Assembly (NCBI GenBank): GCA_021372515.1
Contig: JAJFUG010000073.1
Location: forward strand, 25,796-89,795
Direction: 5' to 3'
From: a bacterium
Lineage (GTDB): Bacteria; Gemmatimonadota; Glassbacteria; GWA2-58-10
Length of the DNA stretch: 64,000 nucleotides
The notes below the pieces were generated by a model that was given only the letters and a program-made list of their open reading frames with translations, had not been told where the DNA came from and searched no databases. Numbering within the stretch: the stretch's first letter is position 1; each line of letters starts with the position of its first letter. Both the position numbers and the translations under genes were made by a program. Shown one piece after another: positions 6,001 to 42,751 of the stretch.

Positions 6001-7364
6001 GCAGCGCCATTTTCTGGCAGTTCTCGACCCTCGACCCCGACTACCGCCTCTGTAAGAGCGGGGCGGACATGCTGCGCATTTTCGGCGAGCTGCGCCACGG
6101 CGGAGTCGCGCGGCTGCTGACCACGGCGCACTGGACCCCCAGCGAGGTGGTGCTGTTCTGGTCCATGCCCGCGCTGCACGGAAGCTGGATCCAGGACGGC
6201 CGGATCGTGGAGCAGGACGGGGCCCCGAGCGCGGCGTTCGAGCGCTGGGAGTTCAACTACGAGAGCTGGCGCTGGCTGCTGGATGACCTGGGCGTGCCCT
6301 ACCGCGCCATGAGCTGGCAGATGCTGGAGCAGGGCTGGTTGGAGAAATCCGGGGCCAGGGTGCTGGTCCTGCCCGCGACAATCGCCCTTTCGGAAAAGGG
6401 AACCGCCGCGGTGCGGAATTTCGTGCAGGCGGGCGGCGCGGTGATCGCGGATGCCCAGCCGGCGGTGATGGACGGCCATTGCAAGTGGCTGGAGAAGGGC
6501 GGCCTGGATGGGCTGTTTGGCCTGAGCGGACAGCGCGCCAGGCTGATCCCGACAGTGGGGGATTATACGGAGGTGCGCGGCGCTGTGCACGGGCTGGCCG
6601 TGGCGGACAGTGGAGTGCAGCCCGCGGGCGCGAGTCGGGCCGACTACGGTCCGGGTCTGCCGGGCGTGCTCAGGGGTTCGGTCGGGCAGGGGCGGACTTT
6701 CTTCCTCAACGCCTGGCTGGCCGGTTACGGACGGCTCCGTCAGACCGGCGGTGGGGCCGAGGTGCGCCAGGGCCTGGCCGCTCTGCTCAAGGATGCCGGA
6801 TACAAACCGCTCATCGAGTTGCGGCCCTCCGCCGGCGGCGACCTCCAGGCCGTGCGCCTGACCTCCTACAACCTGGGCCAGGGCTACGTGCTGGGCCTGC
6901 TGAAGGACTACCGATCCGCCGACCCGCGCCAGGACCTCGACCTCACGCTGCCCGCGGCGGGCTACCAGTACGATGTCCGCGCCGGGCGCTACCTGGGCTT
7001 CGGCTCCGTGCTGCGCACGGACATCGCCCCGGGCGAGGTGCGGCTCGTGGCCAGCCTGCCCTACCGGGTGAGCGGCCTGGAGCTGAAAGGGCCGCAGACT
7101 GCGAGCCGCGGGCAGGCGGTGGAGTTCGGCGCGACCGTGCTGGCCGCGGAGGGAAAAGAGGCCGGGCCGCACGTGCTGGTGGCGCGCGTGTTCGACCCCT
7201 CGGGCGCGGCGGTGGACTACTACGGGAAGAACCTCAGTGCTCAGAACGGGCAGGCTTCTTTCAGCCTGCCTCTGGCGCTGAGCGATACGCCGGGGCGCTG
7301 GCGGGTGCGGGTGCGGGACGTGGTCAGCGGGGTGAGCGGCCAGTGGGCTTTCCAGGTGCAATGA
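3096..7364 (+). CDS. large secreted multidomain glycoside hydrolase with a GH42-like (beta-galactosidase family) central region
   Basis: Start moved to ATG 3096 (MLFKAPLTGLGLLLVLIACSFSLLSA, a signal peptide). The central region has GH42-like motifs (AFRDWLKGQYGSLAALNAQWGAAFTSWDAV) and a GATase1-like trimerisation-type segment (VLVLPATIALSEKGTAAVRNFVQAGGAVIAD). The N-terminal roughly 650 aa are uncharacterised. Confidence 0.55.
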   Translation: MLFKAPLTGLGLLLVLIACSFSLLSAQDEWGQLQEFEDGDLSRWSVTGGALALDSVYATERKHDLRVEFQAGGVLSVELGGLWRMEQIIREKAGDEGGGGWKIQEAIFVDLYSPVPLSLRLTFRDSLGGSWSTLRTLSQGLNHVQYRREQLAGVDWLALRRVEFSPAAAATLYLDHLRTWEHQPELDSRGRMDIVYSDSVRTPHVAWQRPDAAGPLRGLFVPRAGSGRVMVELMQRFELEPTTVTFEPSLGLHRWAFGDFYGTRALEYDHVTDKFSVSYTALTSELESPRRFEVIALPNLRSWADTPPELRKVLLKRVAEGCGLVLFQPVAGGPAPDLEELSPLAGQTRLELYSPRAADQPEERPAGLAPGGGAWKADDPAHYITRGIPLELIPAADIHHVRYTAKPGARVLISAADGSPILAVGSYGKGRVAVFAWEDQGMFPRVDRPLEDKNGLPYWEYLYALTGRTLRWAAGRDGAGGFGGVVLGKVTGEGPLGITGALTCAPGDSLRVEIRDQEYRVLAERRLPASSGPLELAFPDLPFCTRMVANLWLTRRGRVVDFASAGCSFFGWNRIASLATGLDTYELGDTVSGTVRLDPHGQPARVALELSDNRGRTLAVDTLSLGAGQPGTFSLPTALCLARRAVVTARVLDGNGRAVHSSRAELFIDRPTPWDDYEVMMYRFMPQITAGEWPFLDRYMERLGVTAWAAVPPEFAFRSNLELQAETRLDTEESQDGAGEVPYREQKKNYVATHDKKYLIRRYCLHDPSYLKEQKEIVQRQVKQFKRFSPLSYYCYEEPSLTHYGDAFDLCFGPHTLAAFRDWLKGQYGSLAALNAQWGAAFTSWDAVTPDDTPGAQARGNFSSWSDHRIFMEKSYADNYAYVRRMVREIDPEGRVMMTGTQRTVAQNGYDYYLLDQTIDHTQPYGEPERHKAFMRAGGKITGCTGYGVSGVKLDYELWGRLFAGHTAGSAIFWQFSTLDPDYRLCKSGADMLRIFGELRHGGVARLLTTAHWTPSEVVLFWSMPALHGSWIQDGRIVEQDGAPSAAFERWEFNYESWRWLLDDLGVPYRAMSWQMLEQGWLEKSGARVLVLPATIALSEKGTAAVRNFVQAGGAVIADAQPAVMDGHCKWLEKGGLDGLFGLSGQRARLIPTVGDYTEVRGAVHGLAVADSGVQPAGASRADYGPGLPGVLRGSVGQGRTFFLNAWLAGYGRLRQTGGGAEVRQGLAALLKDAGYKPLIELRPSAGGDLQAVRLTSYNLGQGYVLGLLKDYRSADPRQDLDLTLPAAGYQYDVRAGRYLGFGSVLRTDIAPGEVRLVASLPYRVSGLELKGPQTASRGQAVEFGATVLAAEGKEAGPHVLVARVFDPSGAAVDYYGKNLSAQNGQASFSLPLALSDTPGRWRVRVRDVVSGVSGQWAFQVQ

Positions 7365-29688: not shown

Positions 29689-29750
29689 GCGGGGGAAAGA
29701 AGCTACAAATTGCAGGATTGAACAAAATAATTATATAGGATGAGGTGGAA

Positions 29751-29786
29751 AGAGAGGGCGGGCCTCCTGGCCCGCCCTCTCTTTCG
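29751..29786. terminator. strong bidirectional terminator hairpin at the left boundary of the low-GC islet
   Basis: A perfect 14-bp stem AGAGAGGGCGGGCC / GGCCCGCCCTCTCT with loop TCCT is followed by TTTCG. Confidence 0.65.
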
Positions 29787-29798
29787 TGGGCATATATT

Positions 29799-30572
29799 TT
29801 ACTTCGTTATCTCCTGCAGGTATCTTTCGATACGGTCACTGTTAGTTCCAAGACTTGAAAACTGTTTATCGCAAACATCGCTGAAACGAGCCAGCACCTT
29901 CCTGTTGATACATTCCTGATCCTCGAAAACGGCCATACTGCGAAACGGAAGTTGCCATTTTTCAAACTGGAGCATAGAAATAGTAGCATCTCGCGCTTTA
30001 TCGTCACCTGGCACGGCAAATACAAAAAGCGGACGCTCCATACCATTAATTTTACAATCTACACTATACATACCCTGTGTATCGTGTATAGGATCGTGCC
30101 AATCGAAAACTCTGCGGCTCTCCGGAATTTTATTAGTCATAAACGCACGAAAATCTTCCATAAATGTTGATCGTACGCGTTCTTTTAAAAGATAGGAGAT
30201 ATCGGTGATTTTCAACAATGCCTGAGTGAAAGAATAAAGCGCATTACCATATTGATCTTCCTGAATGGCAAGTACTAATTCACCATCTCGATCTTCAACT
30301 TTAAATACGGATAATGCATTGCTGATGATCTTTTGCCTGGTTCCTTTTAGAATGTCTTTCTCATCAATATCATACGTGAGGTGCATATAGGTATGTCCTT
30401 CGTCAGACAAAATCCAACTCGCATTATCTCTTTTGAGAGTAATTGCCAGATGGTCTCCGTCTTCAAACATAAAAGGAGTGAATACTCTAAAACGAGCCTC
30501 ACCCTCCTGCTCCAGGCGAATCTGCTCGCATACTCTATTGCGAAAATCTTGTCTAATTGTTTCGGTATTCAT
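29799..30572 (-). CDS. uncharacterised protein B of islet operon (257 aa; possible PD-(D/E)xK-like motif VPGDD...FEK in C-terminal half)
   Basis: Its ATG lies immediately after the TAG stop of the upstream gene, preceded by GAGGAGG. Composition is AT-rich. No confident family assignment. Confidence 0.55.
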   Translation of the reverse strand: MNTETIRQDFRNRVCEQIRLEQEGEARFRVFTPFMFEDGDHLAITLKRDNASWILSDEGHTYMHLTYDIDEKDILKGTRQKIISNALSVFKVEDRDGELVLAIQEDQYGNALYSFTQALLKITDISYLLKERVRSTFMEDFRAFMTNKIPESRRVFDWHDPIHDTQGMYSVDCKINGMERPLFVFAVPGDDKARDATISMLQFEKWQLPFRSMAVFEDQECINRKVLARFSDVCDKQFSSLGTNSDRIERYLQEITK

Positions 30573-31055
30573 CTATACCTCCTCAAACAAATTCTTTTGA
30601 GGATTTCTTGGAAGGTCAAAATTGCAATCGACAAATAAACATTTTACTGCTGAAGTGAAGTCTGAATATCGTTGTGTTGGCTCAGCATAGGTATCTTCTC
30701 TCGCTCCTAATTCTTGATACCGTTCTGTTGCTGAATGGATATGATAATCATAGAATGTGTCGGACTCTATTCCATTTGTGTGCTCGTGACTTTTCCCGTT
30801 GTATCGTCTCAAACGAAATATCTGATTGCTACCTGCTGGACAATGCGCAAGAATGATTGAGAAATCAAGTGCGTTAAAACTGTTTTGCCTCAAGATAAGA
30901 CGAAATTGATTCCCGTTCTCTCCAAAAAAATCAAATTCTTGTTCCTTGTGACCTCGCTTCTCGCGTAGCTTCATTTTATTTCGGTAATCACTCCCAAGGA
31001 CTTTTTTTTCTGAAATCAATTCTGTAATCTCGGTATCAGAGTATTTTGCAGCCAT
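30573..31055 (-). CDS. uncharacterised protein A of islet operon (160 aa; His-rich segment KSHEHTNG...YDYHIHSATE, possible Rx4-6H HEPN-like motif)
   Basis: The RBS GGAGGAG lies 10 nt upstream of ATG 31055. It is translationally coupled to protein B. Confidence 0.55.
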   Translation of the reverse strand: MAAKYSDTEITELISEKKVLGSDYRNKMKLREKRGHKEQEFDFFGENGNQFRLILRQNSFNALDFSIILAHCPAGSNQIFRLRRYNGKSHEHTNGIESDTFYDYHIHSATERYQELGAREDTYAEPTQRYSDFTSAVKCLFVDCNFDLPRNPQKNLFEEV

Positions 31056-31111
31056 TGTGATTTACTCCTCCAAGAATCACAGTATGTTTGGTTTAGAATT
31101 CTTGAGCCTTT

Positions 31112-36165: not shown

Positions 36166-36281
36166 TCGGGTGGAATTCATTTGTTTCTTGACAGCAGTCG
36201 CATTCCGGGGGAAAATGGTCCCAGGGCTTGCAGTACGGCCCACCCACAACGGACGACCGAACTCTTCCCTGGAGGCCTTTG

Positions 36282-36734
36282 ATGCGCTGGTCTTATCTTG
36301 TCGTGGCCCTGCTGACGCTGCTGGTTCTGGGCTGGGCGATGCGGATGGGTGGGGAAATAATGATGGCCGTGGACCTGCCGAGCCTGGCGCTGGTGCTTGC
36401 GCCCGCTCTCCTGATGTCGCTCGCCACCCACGGTCCGGCTGAAATGGCGGGTTGTTTCGCAGTGGCCTTCAAAAAAGAGGGAGTCGAGCCGGCGGCGCTG
36501 GAGAAAGGGATTCTGTTTTTCAAGACCCTGCAGGCCTATTTCACAATCAGCGCCGTAATATCTTTCCTTATGGGTCTTATTATTCTTCTGGCTTCGGCGG
36601 AGGATTACGCGACAATCTGCCCCGGACTGGCCGTGTCGATTATTTCGGTGCTTTATGCCTACCTTCTGGCCCTGCTGGTCACGGTGCCGTTCAGGACCGC
36701 GCTCGAAAAGAAAAAGATCGAGTTGGGCCGCTGA
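36282..36734 (+). CDS. hypothetical integral membrane protein (about 150 aa, 4 TM)
   Basis: RBS GGAGG lies 6 nt upstream of ATG 36282. It has hydrophobic helices throughout. No family assigned. Confidence 0.5.
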   Translation: MRWSYLVVALLTLLVLGWAMRMGGEIMMAVDLPSLALVLAPALLMSLATHGPAEMAGCFAVAFKKEGVEPAALEKGILFFKTLQAYFTISAVISFLMGLIILLASAEDYATICPGLAVSIISVLYAYLLALLVTVPFRTALEKKKIELGR

Positions 36735-36860
36735 GTGTGGAATGAAAAATCTGTCTTGTATCTTGAGATTAATGTGAGCCTCGATGGAAGAAAGGTTCGC
36801 TTTACTGCGTTGTATTTTAAGAGGTTGGAATGAGCATGGTGGGAAATATGCTAATAAATC

Positions 36861-36889
36861 TTGACAAACAAGAGTAAAGGAATTATAAA
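36861..36889 (+). promoter_or_regulatory. consensus sigma70 promoter (TTGACA, 17 nt, TATAAA) inside the islet
   Basis: The -35 TTGACA is at 36861-36866 and the -10 TATAAA at 36884-36889, with an exact 17-bp spacer. Confidence 0.5.
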
Positions 36890-36895
36890 TTAAAC

Positions 36896-36954
36896 AATCC
36901 ACGTATGTGGAGGTGGATGGCTTTGCCATCGGAGCCCGCAAGGGCTCTTTTTTT
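36896..36954 (+). ncRNA. candidate small RNA (about 58 nt, three hairpins, intrinsic terminator GAGCCC-GCAA-GGGCTC + T7)
   Basis: A promoter lies immediately upstream. The hairpins are CCACGTATGTGG, ATGGCTTTGCCAT and the terminator stem at 36932-36947 with T7 at 36948-36954. No ORF is present. It converges on the 3' end of the DUF3800-like gene. Confidence 0.3.
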
Positions 36955-37825
36955 ATCCTATAAATTTTTTCCCAGAACCAGCTATCCTGCCGTTTGATTG
37001 ATAATATTTATTCTGCAATATCGCTACTATCTGTCTTGAAAATACTCCGAGCTCTCTCTCAAATAAATTTTGCTCAGACAAAATTTCACACCAGCTCGGG
37101 TGGGCAAGAAGATCAACTAATTGAAGACCTGCGATGTTATTGCTTTTCTGCTTGACTTTTAATTGTGAGCTTGTGAGGTGTTGTGTAAGATAACCTTTTT
37201 CAAGGTAATGAGTTCCTTTGTTGTAGAGATTGTTAAAGGCTTCTTTTAATTTCTTGTCCTCTTTTCCTCCTCTGGATTCTGCAAGAACATCCCCAGTAGC
37301 TCCTGTACTTCTTAGAAAGAAAATATATCTTTCAAGCATAACTTCCAAACAATAGTGGTAAGGATGATATATCCAAGTGGAATATGTTTCTTTATGTGCT
37401 TTCTTATCTATGCATATGGTTATAACTTTGAAATCCCACCTTCTCAAGCAATTAAGTAGTTCGGAATTGAATTGCTTTTCCGTTTCTGGATCAGAAAGCA
37501 CTGAGAATACATCTCGTTTGTTTACAATGTCTTTGCGATGCAAGATCACTGGATCATCAGGGTGCTGTCCGAAGAATCTTTTCTTTAGGGACTCCATTTC
37601 TGGAAATACGACATCATCAATGTGGTCTAATTTGAAAATGACACCAGTCAAACTTAAGAATCTATGAATGGGATTTGAGGAGCTTCCCAGGTCTGGATTG
37701 CCGACTTCATCGATATACATTCTGTATTTGGCTGCTGAATTCATGATGGTATCAATTCCACTGATGTTTGCTAATATAGAGAACCAAATTATGTCGTTCA
37801 TGTTTTGCTGTAAAACTGAATTCAT
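36953..37825 (-). CDS. DUF3800-like protein (N-terminal MYIDEVGNP motif)
   Basis: It is AT-rich. The motif RMYIDEVG sits near the N-terminus as in DUF3800 family members. The start is ambiguous (ATG 37825 or ATG 37720). It lies 2 nt downstream of the pyk stop. Confidence 0.55.
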   Translation of the reverse strand: MNSVLQQNMNDIIWFSILANISGIDTIMNSAAKYRMYIDEVGNPDLGSSSNPIHRFLSLTGVIFKLDHIDDVVFPEMESLKKRFFGQHPDDPVILHRKDIVNKRDVFSVLSDPETEKQFNSELLNCLRRWDFKVITICIDKKAHKETYSTWIYHPYHYCLEVMLERYIFFLRSTGATGDVLAESRGGKEDKKLKEAFNNLYNKGTHYLEKGYLTQHLTSSQLKVKQKSNNIAGLQLVDLLAHPSWCEILSEQNLFERELGVFSRQIVAILQNKYYQSNGRIAGSGKKFIG

Positions 37826-37827
37826 TG

Positions 37828-38847
37828 CTAAATATAAGCTTTCTCCGCTTCCTTTGTCACCGCGGCGGCAACCCGCACCACCTCGACTGGATAGCGGCCG
37901 CGGGCGGTCTCGCCGGTGAACAGCAGCCAGCCCGTGCCGTCCAGCACCGCGTTGTAGATATCGCTCACCTCGGCCCGGGTGGGCACAGGGTTAACGCACA
38001 TCGATTCGAGCATCTGGGTCGAGGTGATCGACTCCAAGCCCAGGGCGGCGGCCCGGCGCAGCACGTGTTTCTGGGCCGCGGGCACCCGCTCCAGACCGAT
38101 CTCGGCCCCCAGGTCGCCTCGCGCCACCAGGACACCGTCGGCTGCTTCCAGTATCCCCTCCAGGTTGTCTAAGGCCTCGGCGCGCTCGACCTTGGCGATC
38201 AGGCGCAGACTTGCTCCGCGTGCGGCCAGGTAATCCCGTACCTCCCGCACCGAGCCGGCATCCCGCACGAACGAAAGCGCCAGGCTGTCGAACCCGAGGG
38301 CGGCCAGGCAGTCCAGGTCGGCGCGATCCTTGGCGCTCAAGGCAGGGAGCCTGAGGTCGAGCCCCGGGGCGTTCACCCCCTTGCGCCCCTCCAGCGCCCC
38401 GCCGCGGACAATCCGGCAGCGCGCCTCCACGCCCGGTTCCAGTACTTCCAGCTCCACCGCCCCGTCGTTCAGCAGCACCCGTGCGCCAGGCACGAGCGCC
38501 CGGACCAGCTCCGGACAGTCGAGCGTTATCCGTCCGGCGCCGAGCGGCGCTTCGCCCGCGCAGAGGACAGTTTCCCGTCCTGCCTCCAGCCGCACGCCGC
38601 CCTCCGGGGCCGTGGCCGTGCGTGGTCGTGGCCCCTGAAGGTCGGCCAGCAGGCGGACTCGCTGTCCGCTGGCTTTCTCGGCTTGTCTGAGGGGAACGAG
38701 CAGGCGTTCGCATTCGCCGGGGGTAAGATGGGAGAAATTGACCCGCACCCCGCGCATTCCGGACTCGATCATGGCCTCAAGAATGGGCTGGGAGGCGCAG
38801 GACGGTCCCAGGGTGCACATTATTCCGGTGCGCAGCGGTGCGGTCAT
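37828..38847 (-). CDS. pyk: pyruvate kinase lacking the C-terminal (allosteric) domain
   Basis: A and B domains are present (MTAPLRTGIMCTLGP..., NFSHLTPGE, MVARGDLGAEIG). The protein ends at ...VVRVAAAVTKEAEKAYI* after 339 aa, where canonical PKs continue with a roughly 130-aa C domain. The ATG overlaps the pfk stop (ATGA). Confidence 0.8.
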   Translation of the reverse strand: MTAPLRTGIMCTLGPSCASQPILEAMIESGMRGVRVNFSHLTPGECERLLVPLRQAEKASGQRVRLLADLQGPRPRTATAPEGGVRLEAGRETVLCAGEAPLGAGRITLDCPELVRALVPGARVLLNDGAVELEVLEPGVEARCRIVRGGALEGRKGVNAPGLDLRLPALSAKDRADLDCLAALGFDSLALSFVRDAGSVREVRDYLAARGASLRLIAKVERAEALDNLEGILEAADGVLVARGDLGAEIGLERVPAAQKHVLRRAAALGLESITSTQMLESMCVNPVPTRAEVSDIYNAVLDGTGWLLFTGETARGRYPVEVVRVAAAVTKEAEKAYI

Positions 38848-40193
38848 CCGGCAGCCGCGCCGATCCGGCCCGGCTGCCCGGTGGCCGAGAGCACGCTGTT
38901 CCAGAGGCTGCTCTCCAGGGCCACCTTTTTCTTGCCGTGGGTGACCTGGCTTAATGGCACGTGGGTCATCACATTGTGCCACAGGCCGACCACCATGTCG
39001 GTCTTGCCGGCCATGGCGGCGTGCACCGCGGCGCGGCCCAGGTCGTTGCAGAACAGAGCGTCCCCGGCATCCGCCGGCACGGAGCGCACCACGTAACTCG
39101 GGTCGATGTACTTGAGGTTCACCTCGTGGCCGCACCCGGCGAAATGCGCCTTGATCCTGTCGCGCAGGAACGTGCCCACATCCCGGGACATCTGGCTGTA
39201 GGCGATGTTGCCGCTCTTGTCGCGCATGATCTCGCCGCTGTCGACCAGGTCGAGTCCCGCGCCCTCGGCGGCCACGATTACGGCGTGGTTGCGCCGCACC
39301 AGGCGTTCCTCCAGCAGCTCGAACAGGCCGCCCGGTCCCTCCAGGCTGAACGGGCACTCGGGGATCAGGCAGAAATTGACCACCATGCTGGCCAGCGTGG
39401 CGTGGCAGGCGATGAACCCGCTGTCGCGTCCCATCAGCTTGACCAGGCCCACGCCGTTGGGCGCTCCCTCGGCCTCGTTGTGCGCGCCCAGGAGTACCTG
39501 CCGCGCGGCCTGGACCGCGGTGTCGAACCCGAAAGTCTTGTAGACGAAAAGGATATCGTTGTCGATGGTCTTTGGCACGCCGATCACGGACAGCTCGTAG
39601 CCCTGGCGCAGGGCCTCCTCGGCCACGCCGTGCGCCCCTTTCAGGGTGCCGTCCCCGCCGATCGTGAACAGGAGGTTCACTTTCCAGCGGCGGCAGGCCT
39701 CCACGATCAGCGCCGGGTCGACCGCGCCGCGCGAGGAGCCGAGGAACGAGCCGCCGTTGCGCTGAACGCCCTCCACCCGCTGGGGGGTGAGCTCCAGCGG
39801 GGTCTGGGCCGAGGCCATGTCGAACCCGGCGTAGCCGTAACGCACCCCCAGCACCCGTCGCACCCCGTAGCCGTGGTACAGCTCCAGGAAAATGGACTGG
39901 ATGACGTTGTTGATCCCCGGGCAGAGTCCGCCGCAGGTGACAATGGCCGCCCGGGTGCTCTGCGGGTCGAAATAGATACGCCGCCGCGGCCCGGCGCACT
40001 CGAAAGAGGCCGGTTCCCCGGGGCCGTTCTTCCGGGGCAGGTAGACATCCAACGGGATACGCCGGTCATCCGACTTGTAGTCCGGCAGCCCGTCATCCGG
40101 ACGGGTCGAGAGCCCGAGCGGTGAATCGAGCTGCGGAGCGCCCAGGCTCAGCACCTCCAGGTCTTTCCTCTCCGGCTGGAAATCTATTGCCAT
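38844..40193 (-). CDS. pfk: 6-phosphofructokinase
   Basis: It has PFK motifs GGDGT, PKTIDNDI and MGRDSGFIA. The 449-aa gene overlaps the glgP-like stop by 10 bp. Confidence 0.85.
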   Translation of the reverse strand: MAIDFQPERKDLEVLSLGAPQLDSPLGLSTRPDDGLPDYKSDDRRIPLDVYLPRKNGPGEPASFECAGPRRRIYFDPQSTRAAIVTCGGLCPGINNVIQSIFLELYHGYGVRRVLGVRYGYAGFDMASAQTPLELTPQRVEGVQRNGGSFLGSSRGAVDPALIVEACRRWKVNLLFTIGGDGTLKGAHGVAEEALRQGYELSVIGVPKTIDNDILFVYKTFGFDTAVQAARQVLLGAHNEAEGAPNGVGLVKLMGRDSGFIACHATLASMVVNFCLIPECPFSLEGPGGLFELLEERLVRRNHAVIVAAEGAGLDLVDSGEIMRDKSGNIAYSQMSRDVGTFLRDRIKAHFAGCGHEVNLKYIDPSYVVRSVPADAGDALFCNDLGRAAVHAAMAGKTDMVVGLWHNVMTHVPLSQVTHGKKKVALESSLWNSVLSATGQPGRIGAAAG

Positions 40194-42751
40194 AGGATCA
40201 GCCCCAGCTCGTAGGGGTGGACCATGTCGACATGGCGCGGCAGCACGCGCAGGGTGAACCCGTGCCTCCCGCTGTGGGAGCAGCGCACCAGCCCCTCGAA
40301 GCGGTGCACACCGTCGCCGCCCGCGCCCTTGTGCTCCATGACCACCGTGTTCGACCCGGTGATCTCGCGCCGCTGGTTGAGTGTGCCGTAATAGACCTCC
40401 ACCGAGATATCCTCGGGCGTGAGCGAGCCCAGGCGCACCTCGGCCCGGACTTTCATCTCCGTGCCGACCAGGTACTCGCGGTCGACCTCCGCTTCGGCTT
40501 TCTCGATGCGCACACCACCCCAGGCCTCCCGGACCCGTCTGGTCCAGGCGGCCAGTTCCCTGGCGCGGGCGTAGTTGTCGGCCGAAAGGGTGACCGTGCT
40601 CTCGGCGGCGGGCAGGTAGAAACGCTCCAGGTATTCCTGGACCATGCGGTTGGTGTTGAACACCGGCCCGAGCTTGGAGATCGAGGCGCGCATCTTGTCG
40701 ATCCAGCGGCGCGGCTGACCGTTCTCGCTGCGCTGGTAGAACTGCGGCACCACCTCGTTTTCCAGCAGGTTGTACAGGGCGTTGGACTCGATCTCATCCT
40801 GAAGGGCCAGGTCGGTGTATTCCTCGCCCTTACCGATGGCCCAGCCGGAGTCGCGCTCCAGCTCGTAGGCCTCATCCCACCAGCCGTCCAGGGTGCTCAG
40901 GTTGAGCGCTCCGTTGTAGACCGCTTTCATGCCGCTGGTGCCCGAGGCCTCCATCGGACGGCGCGGGTTGTTCAGCCAGACATCCACTCCCTGGACCATG
41001 TAGCGCGAGACCACCAGGTCGTAGTTTTCGAGGAACACGATCCGGCGGCGCACCTCGGGGTCGTTCGAAAAATGCACGATCTGGCGGATGAAAGCCTTGC
41101 CCTCCTCGTCCCGCGGATGGGCCTTGCCGGCGAAGATGAACTGGACCGGGCGGTCCTTGCTGTTCATGATCCGTTTCAGGCGCTCGACGTCTTTCAGCAG
41201 CAGAGTGGCGCGCTTGTAGGTGGCGAAACGGCGGGCGAACCCGATGGTCAGCAAGCCCGGCTCCAGCACCTCATCCGCCAGGGAGATTTCCTGGGCCGAG
41301 GCCCCGCGCTCGGAAAGCTGTCGCTTCAGGCGCTTGCGGGCGAAAGCCACCAGGCGCTCGCGGCGGCGCTCGTGGGTGCGCCAGATTTCCTCGGCCGGAA
41401 TCTGGTCCACCCGGTCCCAGACCGCCGTGTCCGTGGGGTTCTCGCGCCAGCGGTGCCCCAGGTAGCGGTCGTAGAGGGAGGCGAAATCGCGGCTCAGCCA
41501 GGAGTGGATATGCACGCCGTTGGTCACGTGGGTGATCGGCACGTCCTCCAGGGGCACGCCGCTCCAGACATTCTGCCACATGTTGCGGCTGACCGCGCCG
41601 TGAAGGCGGCTCACGCCGTTGTAGTAGCCCGAAAGCCGGAAAGCCAGGTAGACCATGTTGAACGGTTCGAGGTCGTTATCCGGGTTGCGGCGCCCAAGGG
41701 CCAGAAAGCGGCGTTTGTCCAGGCCGAGCTGCCCGTACAGCGGCGAGAAATAGTAGTCCACCATGGCCGGGTCGAACGTGTCGATGCCGGCCGGGACCGG
41801 GGTGTGGGTGGTGAAAATGGTGCCCGGCCTCACCGCGGCCAGGGCCTCATCGAACGAGAGCTTTGCGTCGGTGGTAAGCCTCCGGATACGCTCGATGCCC
41901 AGGAACGCGGCGTGGCCCTCGTTCATGTGGCAGACATCCGGGTCGATCCCGATGGCGTCCAGCGCGATCAGCCCGCCCACGCCCATCAGGATTTCCTGCT
42001 GGATGCGCATCTCCTTGTCCCCGCCGTAGAGCTGGTAGGTGATCGCCCGGTCGGAGGGGCTGTTGGCCGGGACATTGGTGTCCAGCAGATACAGCGGCAC
42101 CCGGCCGACCTGGGCTTTCCAGATGCGGGCGCAGACATTGCGGCCGGGGAACGGCACGCAGATCACGATCTGTTTGCCCTGGGCGTCGTTGACCGGGGCC
42201 ACCGGCAGCTTGTAGGGGTCGTTGTCGTAGTAGGATTCCTGCTGGTACCCGTCGATATTGAGGTACTGGCGGAAATAGCCGTGCTGGTACATCAGGCCCA
42301 CCCCCACCAGGGGGGCGCCCAGGTCGCTGGCGCTTTTCACGTGGTCGCCGGCCAGCACGCCCAGGCCGCCGGAGTAGATCGGCAGGCACTCGGAGATGCC
42401 GAACTCGGCGCTGAAATAGGCCACGGTCATCTTGTAGTCCTGGTCACCGTGGGCTTTCTGGAACCAGGTGCGCGTGTCGGCCAGGTACTCTTCCAGACGC
42501 TGACGGGCCGAGTTCAGGTGGTCCAGGAACCCGTCATCCACGGCCAGCTTGTCCAGGGTGGTCTGGTCGATCGTGTCCAGGATGAGCGAGGGGTTGTGGC
42601 GGGTCGCTTCCCAGAGGTTGGGGTCCATGCGCCGGAACAGCTCGATCAGGTCATGGTCCCAGGCCCAGTACAGGTTGCCGGCGATCTCGCGCAGCACGCG
42701 GAGTTTTTCGGGCAGCGCGGGGACAATCGAAAACTCGGTGATGTTTTTCAT
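40184..42751 (-). CDS. glgP: alpha-glucan (glycogen/maltodextrin) phosphorylase, GT35, DUF3417-type N-terminus
   Basis: The 855-aa protein has the N-terminal block LYWAWDHDLIELFRRMDP, SAEFGISE..LPIYSGGLGVLAGDH and the PLP-binding region in the C-terminal half. Confidence 0.85.
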   Translation of the reverse strand: MKNITEFSIVPALPEKLRVLREIAGNLYWAWDHDLIELFRRMDPNLWEATRHNPSLILDTIDQTTLDKLAVDDGFLDHLNSARQRLEEYLADTRTWFQKAHGDQDYKMTVAYFSAEFGISECLPIYSGGLGVLAGDHVKSASDLGAPLVGVGLMYQHGYFRQYLNIDGYQQESYYDNDPYKLPVAPVNDAQGKQIVICVPFPGRNVCARIWKAQVGRVPLYLLDTNVPANSPSDRAITYQLYGGDKEMRIQQEILMGVGGLIALDAIGIDPDVCHMNEGHAAFLGIERIRRLTTDAKLSFDEALAAVRPGTIFTTHTPVPAGIDTFDPAMVDYYFSPLYGQLGLDKRRFLALGRRNPDNDLEPFNMVYLAFRLSGYYNGVSRLHGAVSRNMWQNVWSGVPLEDVPITHVTNGVHIHSWLSRDFASLYDRYLGHRWRENPTDTAVWDRVDQIPAEEIWRTHERRRERLVAFARKRLKRQLSERGASAQEISLADEVLEPGLLTIGFARRFATYKRATLLLKDVERLKRIMNSKDRPVQFIFAGKAHPRDEEGKAFIRQIVHFSNDPEVRRRIVFLENYDLVVSRYMVQGVDVWLNNPRRPMEASGTSGMKAVYNGALNLSTLDGWWDEAYELERDSGWAIGKGEEYTDLALQDEIESNALYNLLENEVVPQFYQRSENGQPRRWIDKMRASISKLGPVFNTNRMVQEYLERFYLPAAESTVTLSADNYARARELAAWTRRVREAWGGVRIEKAEAEVDREYLVGTEMKVRAEVRLGSLTPEDISVEVYYGTLNQRREITGSNTVVMEHKGAGGDGVHRFEGLVRCSHSGRHGFTLRVLPRHVDMVHPYELGLILWQ

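Follow-up and report, generated by a model that had tools for sequence, protein, structure and literature searches.

The window analysed here is a stretch of 64,000 nucleotides (nt) of a metagenome-assembled bacterial contig (JAJFUG010000073.1, assembly GCA_021372515.1), in which a small islet of low guanine-plus-cytosine (GC) content lies directly behind pyk, a pyruvate kinase (PK) gene whose product has no C-terminal domain. Comparison with islet-free relatives supported the view that this lineage, which is related to metagenome-assembled genomes (MAGs) of the Gemmatimonadales, has a naturally minimal PK of about 340 amino acids (aa). The islet itself, as judged from its atypical GC content and from the empty site present in those relatives, is a horizontally acquired 1.1-kb cassette, inserted in the spacer of about 16 nt between pyk and a convergent gene. 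It carries a gene of the DUF3800 family and, on the opposite strand, a predicted small RNA (sRNA) gene. We consider it quite likely, taking the explanation as a whole, that the minimal kinase and the acquired two-part cassette are two independent things which meet at this place.

The pyk product was found in a Pfam scan to contain a complete PK barrel (A and B domains, PF00224; profile positions 3–328 of 328, E 1e-88), and no PK_C domain (PF02887) was detected in its 339 aa. When aligned with the 470-aa PykF of E. coli it corresponded to residues 3–336, which places its end at the boundary between the A and C domains; with the 587-aa enzyme of Geobacillus stearothermophilus it corresponded to residues 4–338, and the end coincided with the last A-domain helix. 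The sequence-only reading of this DNA had noted that the protein ends at a point beyond which canonical PKs have some 130 aa more, and PykF and the longer homologues agree on this point. The catalytic and cation-binding residues R33, N35, D67, K217, E219, D243 and T275 were invariant in the alignment with full-length PKs. The gene lies, as had also been noted, in a glgP–pfk–pyk operon on the minus strand, in which the TGA stop codon of pfk overlaps the ATG start codon of pyk in the sequence ATGA. The minimal enzyme, an A barrel with a B lid, is the product of the last gene of this translationally coupled operon.

Relatives of the kinase were collected in a search among 5.8 billion protein clusters. 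Three of them, with identities of 83%, 74% and 71%, are 340 aa long, consist of the barrel only and have their last residue in one shared column of the alignment; a fourth short relative (P0005, 293 aa) breaks off inside the barrel. Matches with an identity of 48% or less are about 470 aa long or longer, and nearly all of them have PK_C. The last three to four residues of the short PKs vary (KAYI, KALA, QDIG, RSIL). At the locus of the 83% relative (L001, a 106-kb contig; L002 has the same arrangement) the genes are PNP, glgP, pfk, pyk (340 aa), a convergent gene of 151 aa, an acyltransferase gene, DeoC and ADH; this is the gene order of the window, but with a gap of 16 nt between pyk and the convergent gene and with no DUF3800. 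The 74% relative, from a Gemmatimonadales MAG (L003), also belongs to a glgP–pfk–pyk operon (pyk of 340 aa) without DUF3800. The ratio of non-synonymous to synonymous substitution (dN/dS) among three pyk genes was 0.22–0.25 (for the last 40 codons it was 0.20); by this measure pyk is under purifying selection. A displaced C domain was searched for by tblastn, and neither the 64-kb window nor the loci of the relatives yielded one (best E 0.18). The short PK is most likely an active kinase which, to judge from its domain content and conserved residues, would do without C-domain allostery and be controlled at the level of the operon.

The islet was delimited by DNA alignment with L001 and L002. 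On the pyk side, homology extends through GAGAAAGC and then ends; on the far side it begins again at CCACACTCA, where the convergent gene ends; the 3' end of this gene aligns with that of the 151-aa gene ending 16 nt from pyk in L001. About 20 nt were replaced by the islet, namely the last two pyk codons, the stop codon and a short spacer. The last six codons of pyk had earlier been taken for AT-rich islet sequence; the alignment reduces this to two codons and the stop (TAT ATT, coding for Tyr-Ile, and TAG). The insertion would have given pyk a new Tyr-Ile-stop end, within the tail that is variable among the relatives. The GC content was 0.35–0.40 across positions 36750–37800 as against 0.62–0.73 in the flanks (0.37 for the islet, 0.64 for the window), and at third codon positions it was 0.35 in DUF3800 and 0.80 in pyk. 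These values, together with Pfam and the PykF alignment, confirmed that a low-GC DUF3800 gene lies at the 3' end of a pyk without the C domain, as first described. Terminal inverted repeats and a target-site duplication were looked for at the islet ends, and only short matches of chance size were found. The window contains no transfer RNA (tRNA) gene, and hence no tRNA target for the islet; no integrase, transposase or recombinase gene is present in the islet, the contents of which are DUF3800 and the sRNA only. In blastn comparisons with all fetched loci, similarity was confined to about 36878–37729.

A promoter-like site, GTGACA-18-TATATT (37860 to 37831, minus strand; a consensus match only, at 10 of 12 positions), spans the junction of pyk and the islet. 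Its -35 box is native pyk sequence and its -10 box is formed by the islet codons TAT ATT. By its position, this site could drive DUF3800.

Two other accounts of the locus were weighed against a natural minimal PK with an islet behind it. The sequence-only reading had left open whether an insertion replaced the C domain or whether the islet landed behind a PK that was already short, and the comparison of pyk length and synteny, set beforehand as the test between the two, gave the same length and the same operon in relatives from which the islet is absent. If the insertion had destroyed the 3' third of a full-length pyk, a truncated and possibly crippled enzyme would have been left, and the facts that the islet begins within the last pyk codons and that canonical PKs go on for some 130 aa beyond them speak for such an event. 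Removal of the C domain by the insertion is nevertheless refuted, because islet-free relatives carry a PK of the same 340 aa: all three orthologues share one endpoint, the examined loci (L001/L002 and L003) have no islet, dN/dS is 0.2 right to the gene's end, and no remnant of PK_C was found either downstream or elsewhere in the window. That the 340-aa relatives are themselves independent truncations is unlikely given their shared endpoint and the purifying selection, and we give truncation practically no credence. Nor is the islet likely to be an assembly chimera, a high-GC MAG contig into which foreign reads of low GC had been built. The sequence does come from a metagenome-assembled contig (proteins MCE5271181 and MCE5271182) and the change in GC is abrupt, but the native gene order is back on either side within 1.1 kb, at the very point where the relatives' pyk and convergent gene meet; after a chimeric join, synteny would not return in this way. 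DUF3800–sRNA cassettes of the same size stand alone among housekeeping genes in other assemblies, and 6 kb from the islet the same contig has another small insertion of low GC. The chance that we are dealing with a chimera therefore appears very small.

The second low-GC islet (29740–31100, GC 0.40) contains two minus-strand open reading frames (ORFs) and sits between esterase and PAS genes, which adjoin each other in L001. Its 257-aa product is assigned to DUF1828 and matches the PADLOC candidate system PDC-M24B with E 5e-20; for the 160-aa product no family was found. The islet is another small insertion, probably related to defence.

The DUF3800 product of the first islet matches PF12686 with 50.2 bits, the gathering cut-off being 21 bits. 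An alignment of 24 DUF3800 sequences was made, and as the homology of the family begins at MKYRIYIDEVGN, the true start of the protein is probably M28 (position 37744), 83 nt past the pyk stop. The ATG two nt after the pyk stop, which had been taken for the start, does exist as that of the longest ORF, but the probable real start is the one further on; the NCBI annotation gives a product of 282 aa. The 10-nt string ATGAATTCAG occurs twice on the minus strand at a distance of 81 nt (37735–37744 and 37816–37825), so placed that the long ORF has its first ATG at one copy and M28 lies at the other. An N-terminal DE motif and a C-terminal QxxD motif have been described for DUF3800 (PMC7736814), and both are present here, as YIDEVG and GLQLVDLLAH. 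D12, E13, D113, E156, Q208 and D211 were invariant in the 24 sequences, and the window protein has the intact residue set DE...D...E...QxxD. The invariant acidic and glutamine residues agree with the published view of DUF3800 as a nuclease of RNase H fold, and the protein models with an RNase HII/PIWI-like (RNase H-like) fold; we regard it as a predicted nuclease.

To the second part of the cassette we came through its conservation beside DUF3800. The homologue set comprised 80 metagenome loci, in which the DUF3800 protein (about 256 aa) is 55–60% identical to that of the window and the flanking sequence is unrelated. Allowing one mismatch, we found the 12-mer CCATCCACCTCC about 40 nt past the DUF3800 stop in 77 of the 80 loci; the three remaining contigs stop within about 35 nt of DUF3800, and all assessable loci carry the sRNA. 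On its own strand the element is laid out as TTGACA, 17 nt, TATAAT, 6 nt, and then AAUCC-NN-loop-NN-GGAGGUGGAUGGC-loop-GCCAUCG-GGCCC-loop-GGGCC-UUUUUU. Among 74 distinct sequences, 98.6% of the 1,258 pair cells of the three helices were canonical, and the two inner pairs of helix P1 showed 29 and 20 double substitutions. None of 500 shuffles matched the observed values, and when the partners were slid by one column, pairing was 53–56%. The same three helices were obtained with RNAalifold. The consensus bases of the TTGACA hexamer were present in 55, 61, 44, 42, 43 and 39 of the 74 sequences and those of TATAAT in 45, 67, 45, 39, 41 and 64. G·U pairs filled 77 cells and A·C only 3; on the DUF3800-sense strand there would be 77 C·A mismatches, and this favours the strand antisense to DUF3800 as that of the sRNA. 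The sRNA of the window had a minimum free energy of -28.1 kcal/mol (z -4.4), and its 3' end, the U-tract, overlaps the DUF3800 stop codon (36953–36955). Except for two P1 base pairs and loops of 3–7 nt the RNA is nearly invariant, and it is present as a single copy. We therefore describe the conserved element as a predicted structured RNA, made from the strand antisense to DUF3800, which has a sigma-70 promoter and an intrinsic terminator of its own. The DUF3800 gene and the sRNA, as their constant arrangement in these loci indicates, are inherited tightly together.

A peptide gene, suggested by an AUG that comes after GGAGGUG, was considered for the same element and rejected; the loops differ by 1–4 nt in length between loci, and no frame is kept. 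In two loci (L052, around 2772–2859, and L053, around 2011–2130) the 5' part of the sRNA and its promoter are replaced by tandem units of about 24 nt (GAAGTCGGCCACCCAATCCGGGC), which include the motif of the sRNA 5' end, CAATCCGG.

A covariance model was built from the sRNA alignment and used to search the window, 19 loci of PK relatives, further DUF3800 loci and viral contigs. It gave a single hit in the window, with 70.4 bits, and in the 19 PK-relative loci nothing below E = 0.7. Hits beside DUF3800 were obtained in loci that had not been used for training: L124 and L127 with 82 bits, L128 with 78 bits, and L066 and L073. L128 is a locus of a cultured bacterium, Geothermobacter ehrlichii (VNIB01000001.1, about 158.4–159.3 kb). 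In L122 and L123 a hit of 40 bits was found beside a DUF3800 of only 30% identity, and in L121, where the DUF3800 is 48% identical, there was a variant of the sRNA with a compensated helix P2 (GACGGU...GCCGUC).

Structured RNAs near DUF3800 genes are not new in themselves. Weinberg et al. (2017; PMC5737381) described eleven unrelated motifs, DUF3800-I to DUF3800-XI, which lie beside DUF3800 genes on either strand, several of them with terminators, and whose function is unknown; RF02969, RF02964 and RF02968 are examples in Rfam. In Rfam 15 we found no family matching the element at E <= 10, whether 1.6 kb or 116 nt of the window was searched, and none in 34 related loci, while the same search detected DUF3800-V (RF02964) in locus L031 as a positive control. 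Going by these searches, the element is probably an additional motif, a DUF3800-associated RNA not represented in Rfam. In L031 the DUF3800-V motif (6880–6976, minus strand, 63.5 bits) is located upstream of the new element (6777–6836) on the same strand, at a distance of about 45 nt, and the usual -35 box of the latter is degraded; at this locus the two may form one longer transcript. The neighbours in L031 are Fic, a MazG-like protein, a Schlafen-like helicase and RhuM.

The cassette occurs in several kinds of surroundings. A type I restriction-modification (R-M) operon encloses it in G. ehrlichii and in no fewer than 10 of the 80 loci (L094, 620–6749; L040, L049, L052, L053, L060, L085, L086, L097, L100 and L128). 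In this layout hsdR ends in an overlap of 4 nt with the start of DUF3800, and past the sRNA come hsdS and hsdM. The gene upstream in L094 has ResIII and EcoEI_R_C domains and is recognised by PADLOC as REase_I (E 4e-91). DUF3800 genes had been said to occur typically as isolated, horizontally transferred genes, and this is broadly right, with the difference that the gene travels with a convergent sRNA and is embedded in R-M operons in these loci. Across phyla the module is found with identities of about 60%; DUF3800 proteins carried by plasmids are just 26–30% identical. The sRNA was absent from the two plasmid DUF3800 loci that were searched (Methylorubrum and Burkholderia), and a blastn search of its consensus against the PLSDB plasmids and the INPHARED phages gave no match. 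Copies of the sRNA were found in viral contigs. In the near-identical IMG/VR contigs L118 (67–127) and L120 (8969–9029) the copy scored 68.8 bits, has a TTGACA/TACACT promoter and a terminator, and is flanked by a Cys-rich ORF of 71 aa and by an HTH_3 gene, with no DUF3800 gene nearby. In the viral contig L113 (1652–3806) an orthologue of Ro60 (TROVE and Ro60 vWA domains) is followed by an sRNA variant (1923–1985, 32 bits) on the same strand; after it comes a weak match to Y RNA (1652–1727, 25 bits, below the gathering score).

On this basis a function for the pair can be proposed. The sRNA would be a dedicated partner of the DUF3800 nuclease. As no canonical terminator precedes the sRNA gene on the sense strand, DUF3800 transcripts would be expected to run into that gene, and both RNAs could then pair. 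The sRNA might act as an antitoxin-like regulator of a toxic nuclease, either as an antisense RNA or bound to the protein. The nuclease and the sRNA could together form a small defence (abortive-infection) or addiction module; this would fit the embedding in R-M operons, the links of DUF3800 to retrons and CRISPR systems and the orphan phage copies as possible decoys, and we put it forward tentatively, at somewhat less than even chances. A bolder version would have a new two-part immunity or addiction module, in which a nuclease of RNase H/PIWI fold is checked or armed by the sRNA with its exposed invariant GGAGGUG, type I R-M operons often house the module and phages carry the orphan sRNA as decoys, lying next to the first natural C-domain-less, non-allosteric PK; in this full form the proposal is rather unlikely.

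Several observations weigh against these proposals. The cassette of the window stands alone among housekeeping genes, as do those of L124 and other genomes, and no defence island surrounds it. Three viral contigs carry the sRNA but no DUF3800, and the RNA may hence have a function that does not require the nuclease. No PADLOC 2.0 family was found for the DUF3800 protein at E <= 1, and none in PHROGs, and the literature searched contained no functional, toxicity or defence assay for the DUF3800 family. The promoter, the terminator and the sRNA are all predictions, and the -10 box of the window, TATAAA, fails a strict consensus scan. On the side of the kinase, activity without the C domain is a prediction from the conservation of residues, which dN/dS supports indirectly.

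Two further readings concern the nature of the conserved element and of the cassette. The hairpins could be a structured 3' untranslated region or bidirectional terminator of the DUF3800 mRNA, or else a protein-binding site in the DNA, since they come directly after the DUF3800 stop and the minus strand offers P1 followed by a U-rich stretch, which a terminator scan flagged as terminator-like. However, the opposite strand has the TTGACA-17-TATAAT promoter, conserved at a constant distance, the U-tract is found on the sRNA strand only, the bias of 77 G·U to 3 A·C cells goes the same way, and the viral contigs have the element with promoter and terminator but without DUF3800. Stems that covary instead of keeping their sequence, as the half-sites of operators do, speak against a DNA-binding site. 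We regard these possibilities as improbable. It might also be thought that DUF3800 and the RNA form a self-mobilising element with an RNA-guided recombinase or nuclease of RNase H fold, in the manner of the IS110 bridge RNA or the TnpB omega RNA: the fold class is common to DDE transposases, RuvC and PIWI, the insertion is small and precise and has no integrase or transposase, the RNA gene is always attached and the module crosses phyla at some 60% identity. Against this, terminal inverted repeats and target duplications are missing, the conserved unit falls short of the islet ends, and each locus has flanks of its own; the near-invariant RNA leaves no room for programmable target or donor guides, and neither identical cassette ends nor loops matching the flanks were present in 74 loci. 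A self-mobilising element of this kind is even less probable than a terminator or binding site, and an independently transcribed sRNA accompanying the DUF3800 gene is the reading that we prefer. The positions of all features are collected in Table 1.

Table 1. Features of the islet and its surroundings (positions in the window)
Feature	Position	Strand	Basis or remark
Low-GC islet, 1,097 bp	36741–37837		Alignment with L001/L002
AT-rich tail of the islet (120 nt), unlike any other DUF3800 locus	36741–36860		blastn
sRNA promoter: -35 TTGACA (36861–36866), 17-nt spacer, -10 TATAAA (36884–36889)	36861–36889	+	Fixed register
Predicted sRNA, 59 nt, convergent with DUF3800	36896–36954	+	Conservation, covariation, promoter
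sRNA helix P1	36898–36911
sRNA invariant core GGAGGUGGAUGG	36909–36920
sRNA helix P2	36916–36930
sRNA terminator hairpin	36931–36948, U-tract to 36954	+	Flagged by terminator scan
DUF3800 gene, probable coding sequence of 263 aa from M28	36953–37744	-	Longest ORF reaches 37825
AT-rich leader (93 nt), pyk stop to probable DUF3800 start, unlike other loci	37745–37837	-	blastn
Convergent membrane-protein gene, 168 aa, native right-hand neighbour of pyk	36228–36734	+	ORF
pyk, 339-aa PK, A and B domains	37828–38847	-	Pfam PK barrel; NCBI model MCE5271182.1
pfk, 449 aa, upstream operon gene	38844–40193	-	Pfam PFK, E 6e-51; same arrangement in L001 and L003
glgP	40184–42751	-	ORF and Pfam; operon with pfk and pyk

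The impression of a mobile gene beheading a glycolytic enzyme was wrong, and what the locus presents is the largely ordinary case of a small foreign islet beside a gene. Two modestly new facts emerged from it, a rare natural minimal PK and a simple, uncatalogued 59-nt sRNA that accompanies a widespread DUF3800 subfamily. The conserved C-domain-less PK of this small clade is a natural test of what the barrel does alone. As filled and empty sites can be compared base by base, the locus also indicates that a cassette of about 1 kb moves as a unit without a recognisable recombinase. The presence of the sRNA in the cultured G. ehrlichii makes the question of DUF3800 and its RNA approachable by experiment.

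When set beside canonical bacterial PKs, the enzyme of the window has a complete barrel A and lid B at 42–48% identity, all catalytic and metal/K+ ligands are conserved, and its gene is found in a glycolytic operon with pfk. The C domain of characterised PKs holds the effector (allosteric) site and the C–C interface, which makes up half of the tetramer contacts. The clade of the window differs in having no such domain of about 130 aa, and with it neither the C–C tetramer interface nor the effector pocket; a natural PK of this kind was not described in the top results of a limited literature search.

The recurrent embedding of the DUF3800 cassette in hsdR/hsdS/hsdM operons resembles that of prrC, the gene of the PrrC anticodon nuclease, which is embedded in a type I R-M operon (EcoprrI). 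In type I toxin–antitoxin (TA) systems the antisense RNA may overlap the 3' end of the toxin gene and the toxins are small membrane peptides, and in type III systems such as ToxIN the RNA is a processed tandem repeat. As in TA systems with an RNA antitoxin, the sRNA gene is tightly linked to a putative nuclease gene, convergent with it and abutting its stop in every assessable locus; the cassette is compact, mobile and solitary, and the orphan RNAs of the phage contigs recall the pseudo-antitoxins of phages. Unlike the toxins of type I systems, DUF3800 is a soluble, RNase H-like protein of 263 aa and not a small membrane or hydrophobic peptide, and where type III systems have an array of repeats that is processed, the sRNA is present just once.

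DUF3800 proteins are known to be fused or linked to the reverse transcriptases (RTs) of type VII retrons, and to be accessory in Cas12a2 and VI-F loci (PMC7736814, PMC10910872, PMC12669027). The protein of the window belongs to the same Pfam family as these, with an RNase H2-like fold predicted and the N-terminal DE motif in place, and it is likewise paired with a partner that produces a non-coding RNA, in those systems in a defence context. It differs in that the islet has no RT, TPR domain, Cas gene or CRISPR array; with no RT or other ORF in the islet, the cassette does not belong to retron type VII. The window protein also keeps QxxD, whereas the retron-linked clade is without its Q. No match to any of the motifs of Weinberg et al. 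was found as they are represented in Rfam 15, a comparison limited to the Rfam families, but the new element has the same general character: a structured RNA next to DUF3800, on the opposite strand, with a Rho-independent terminator and a distribution over several phyla.

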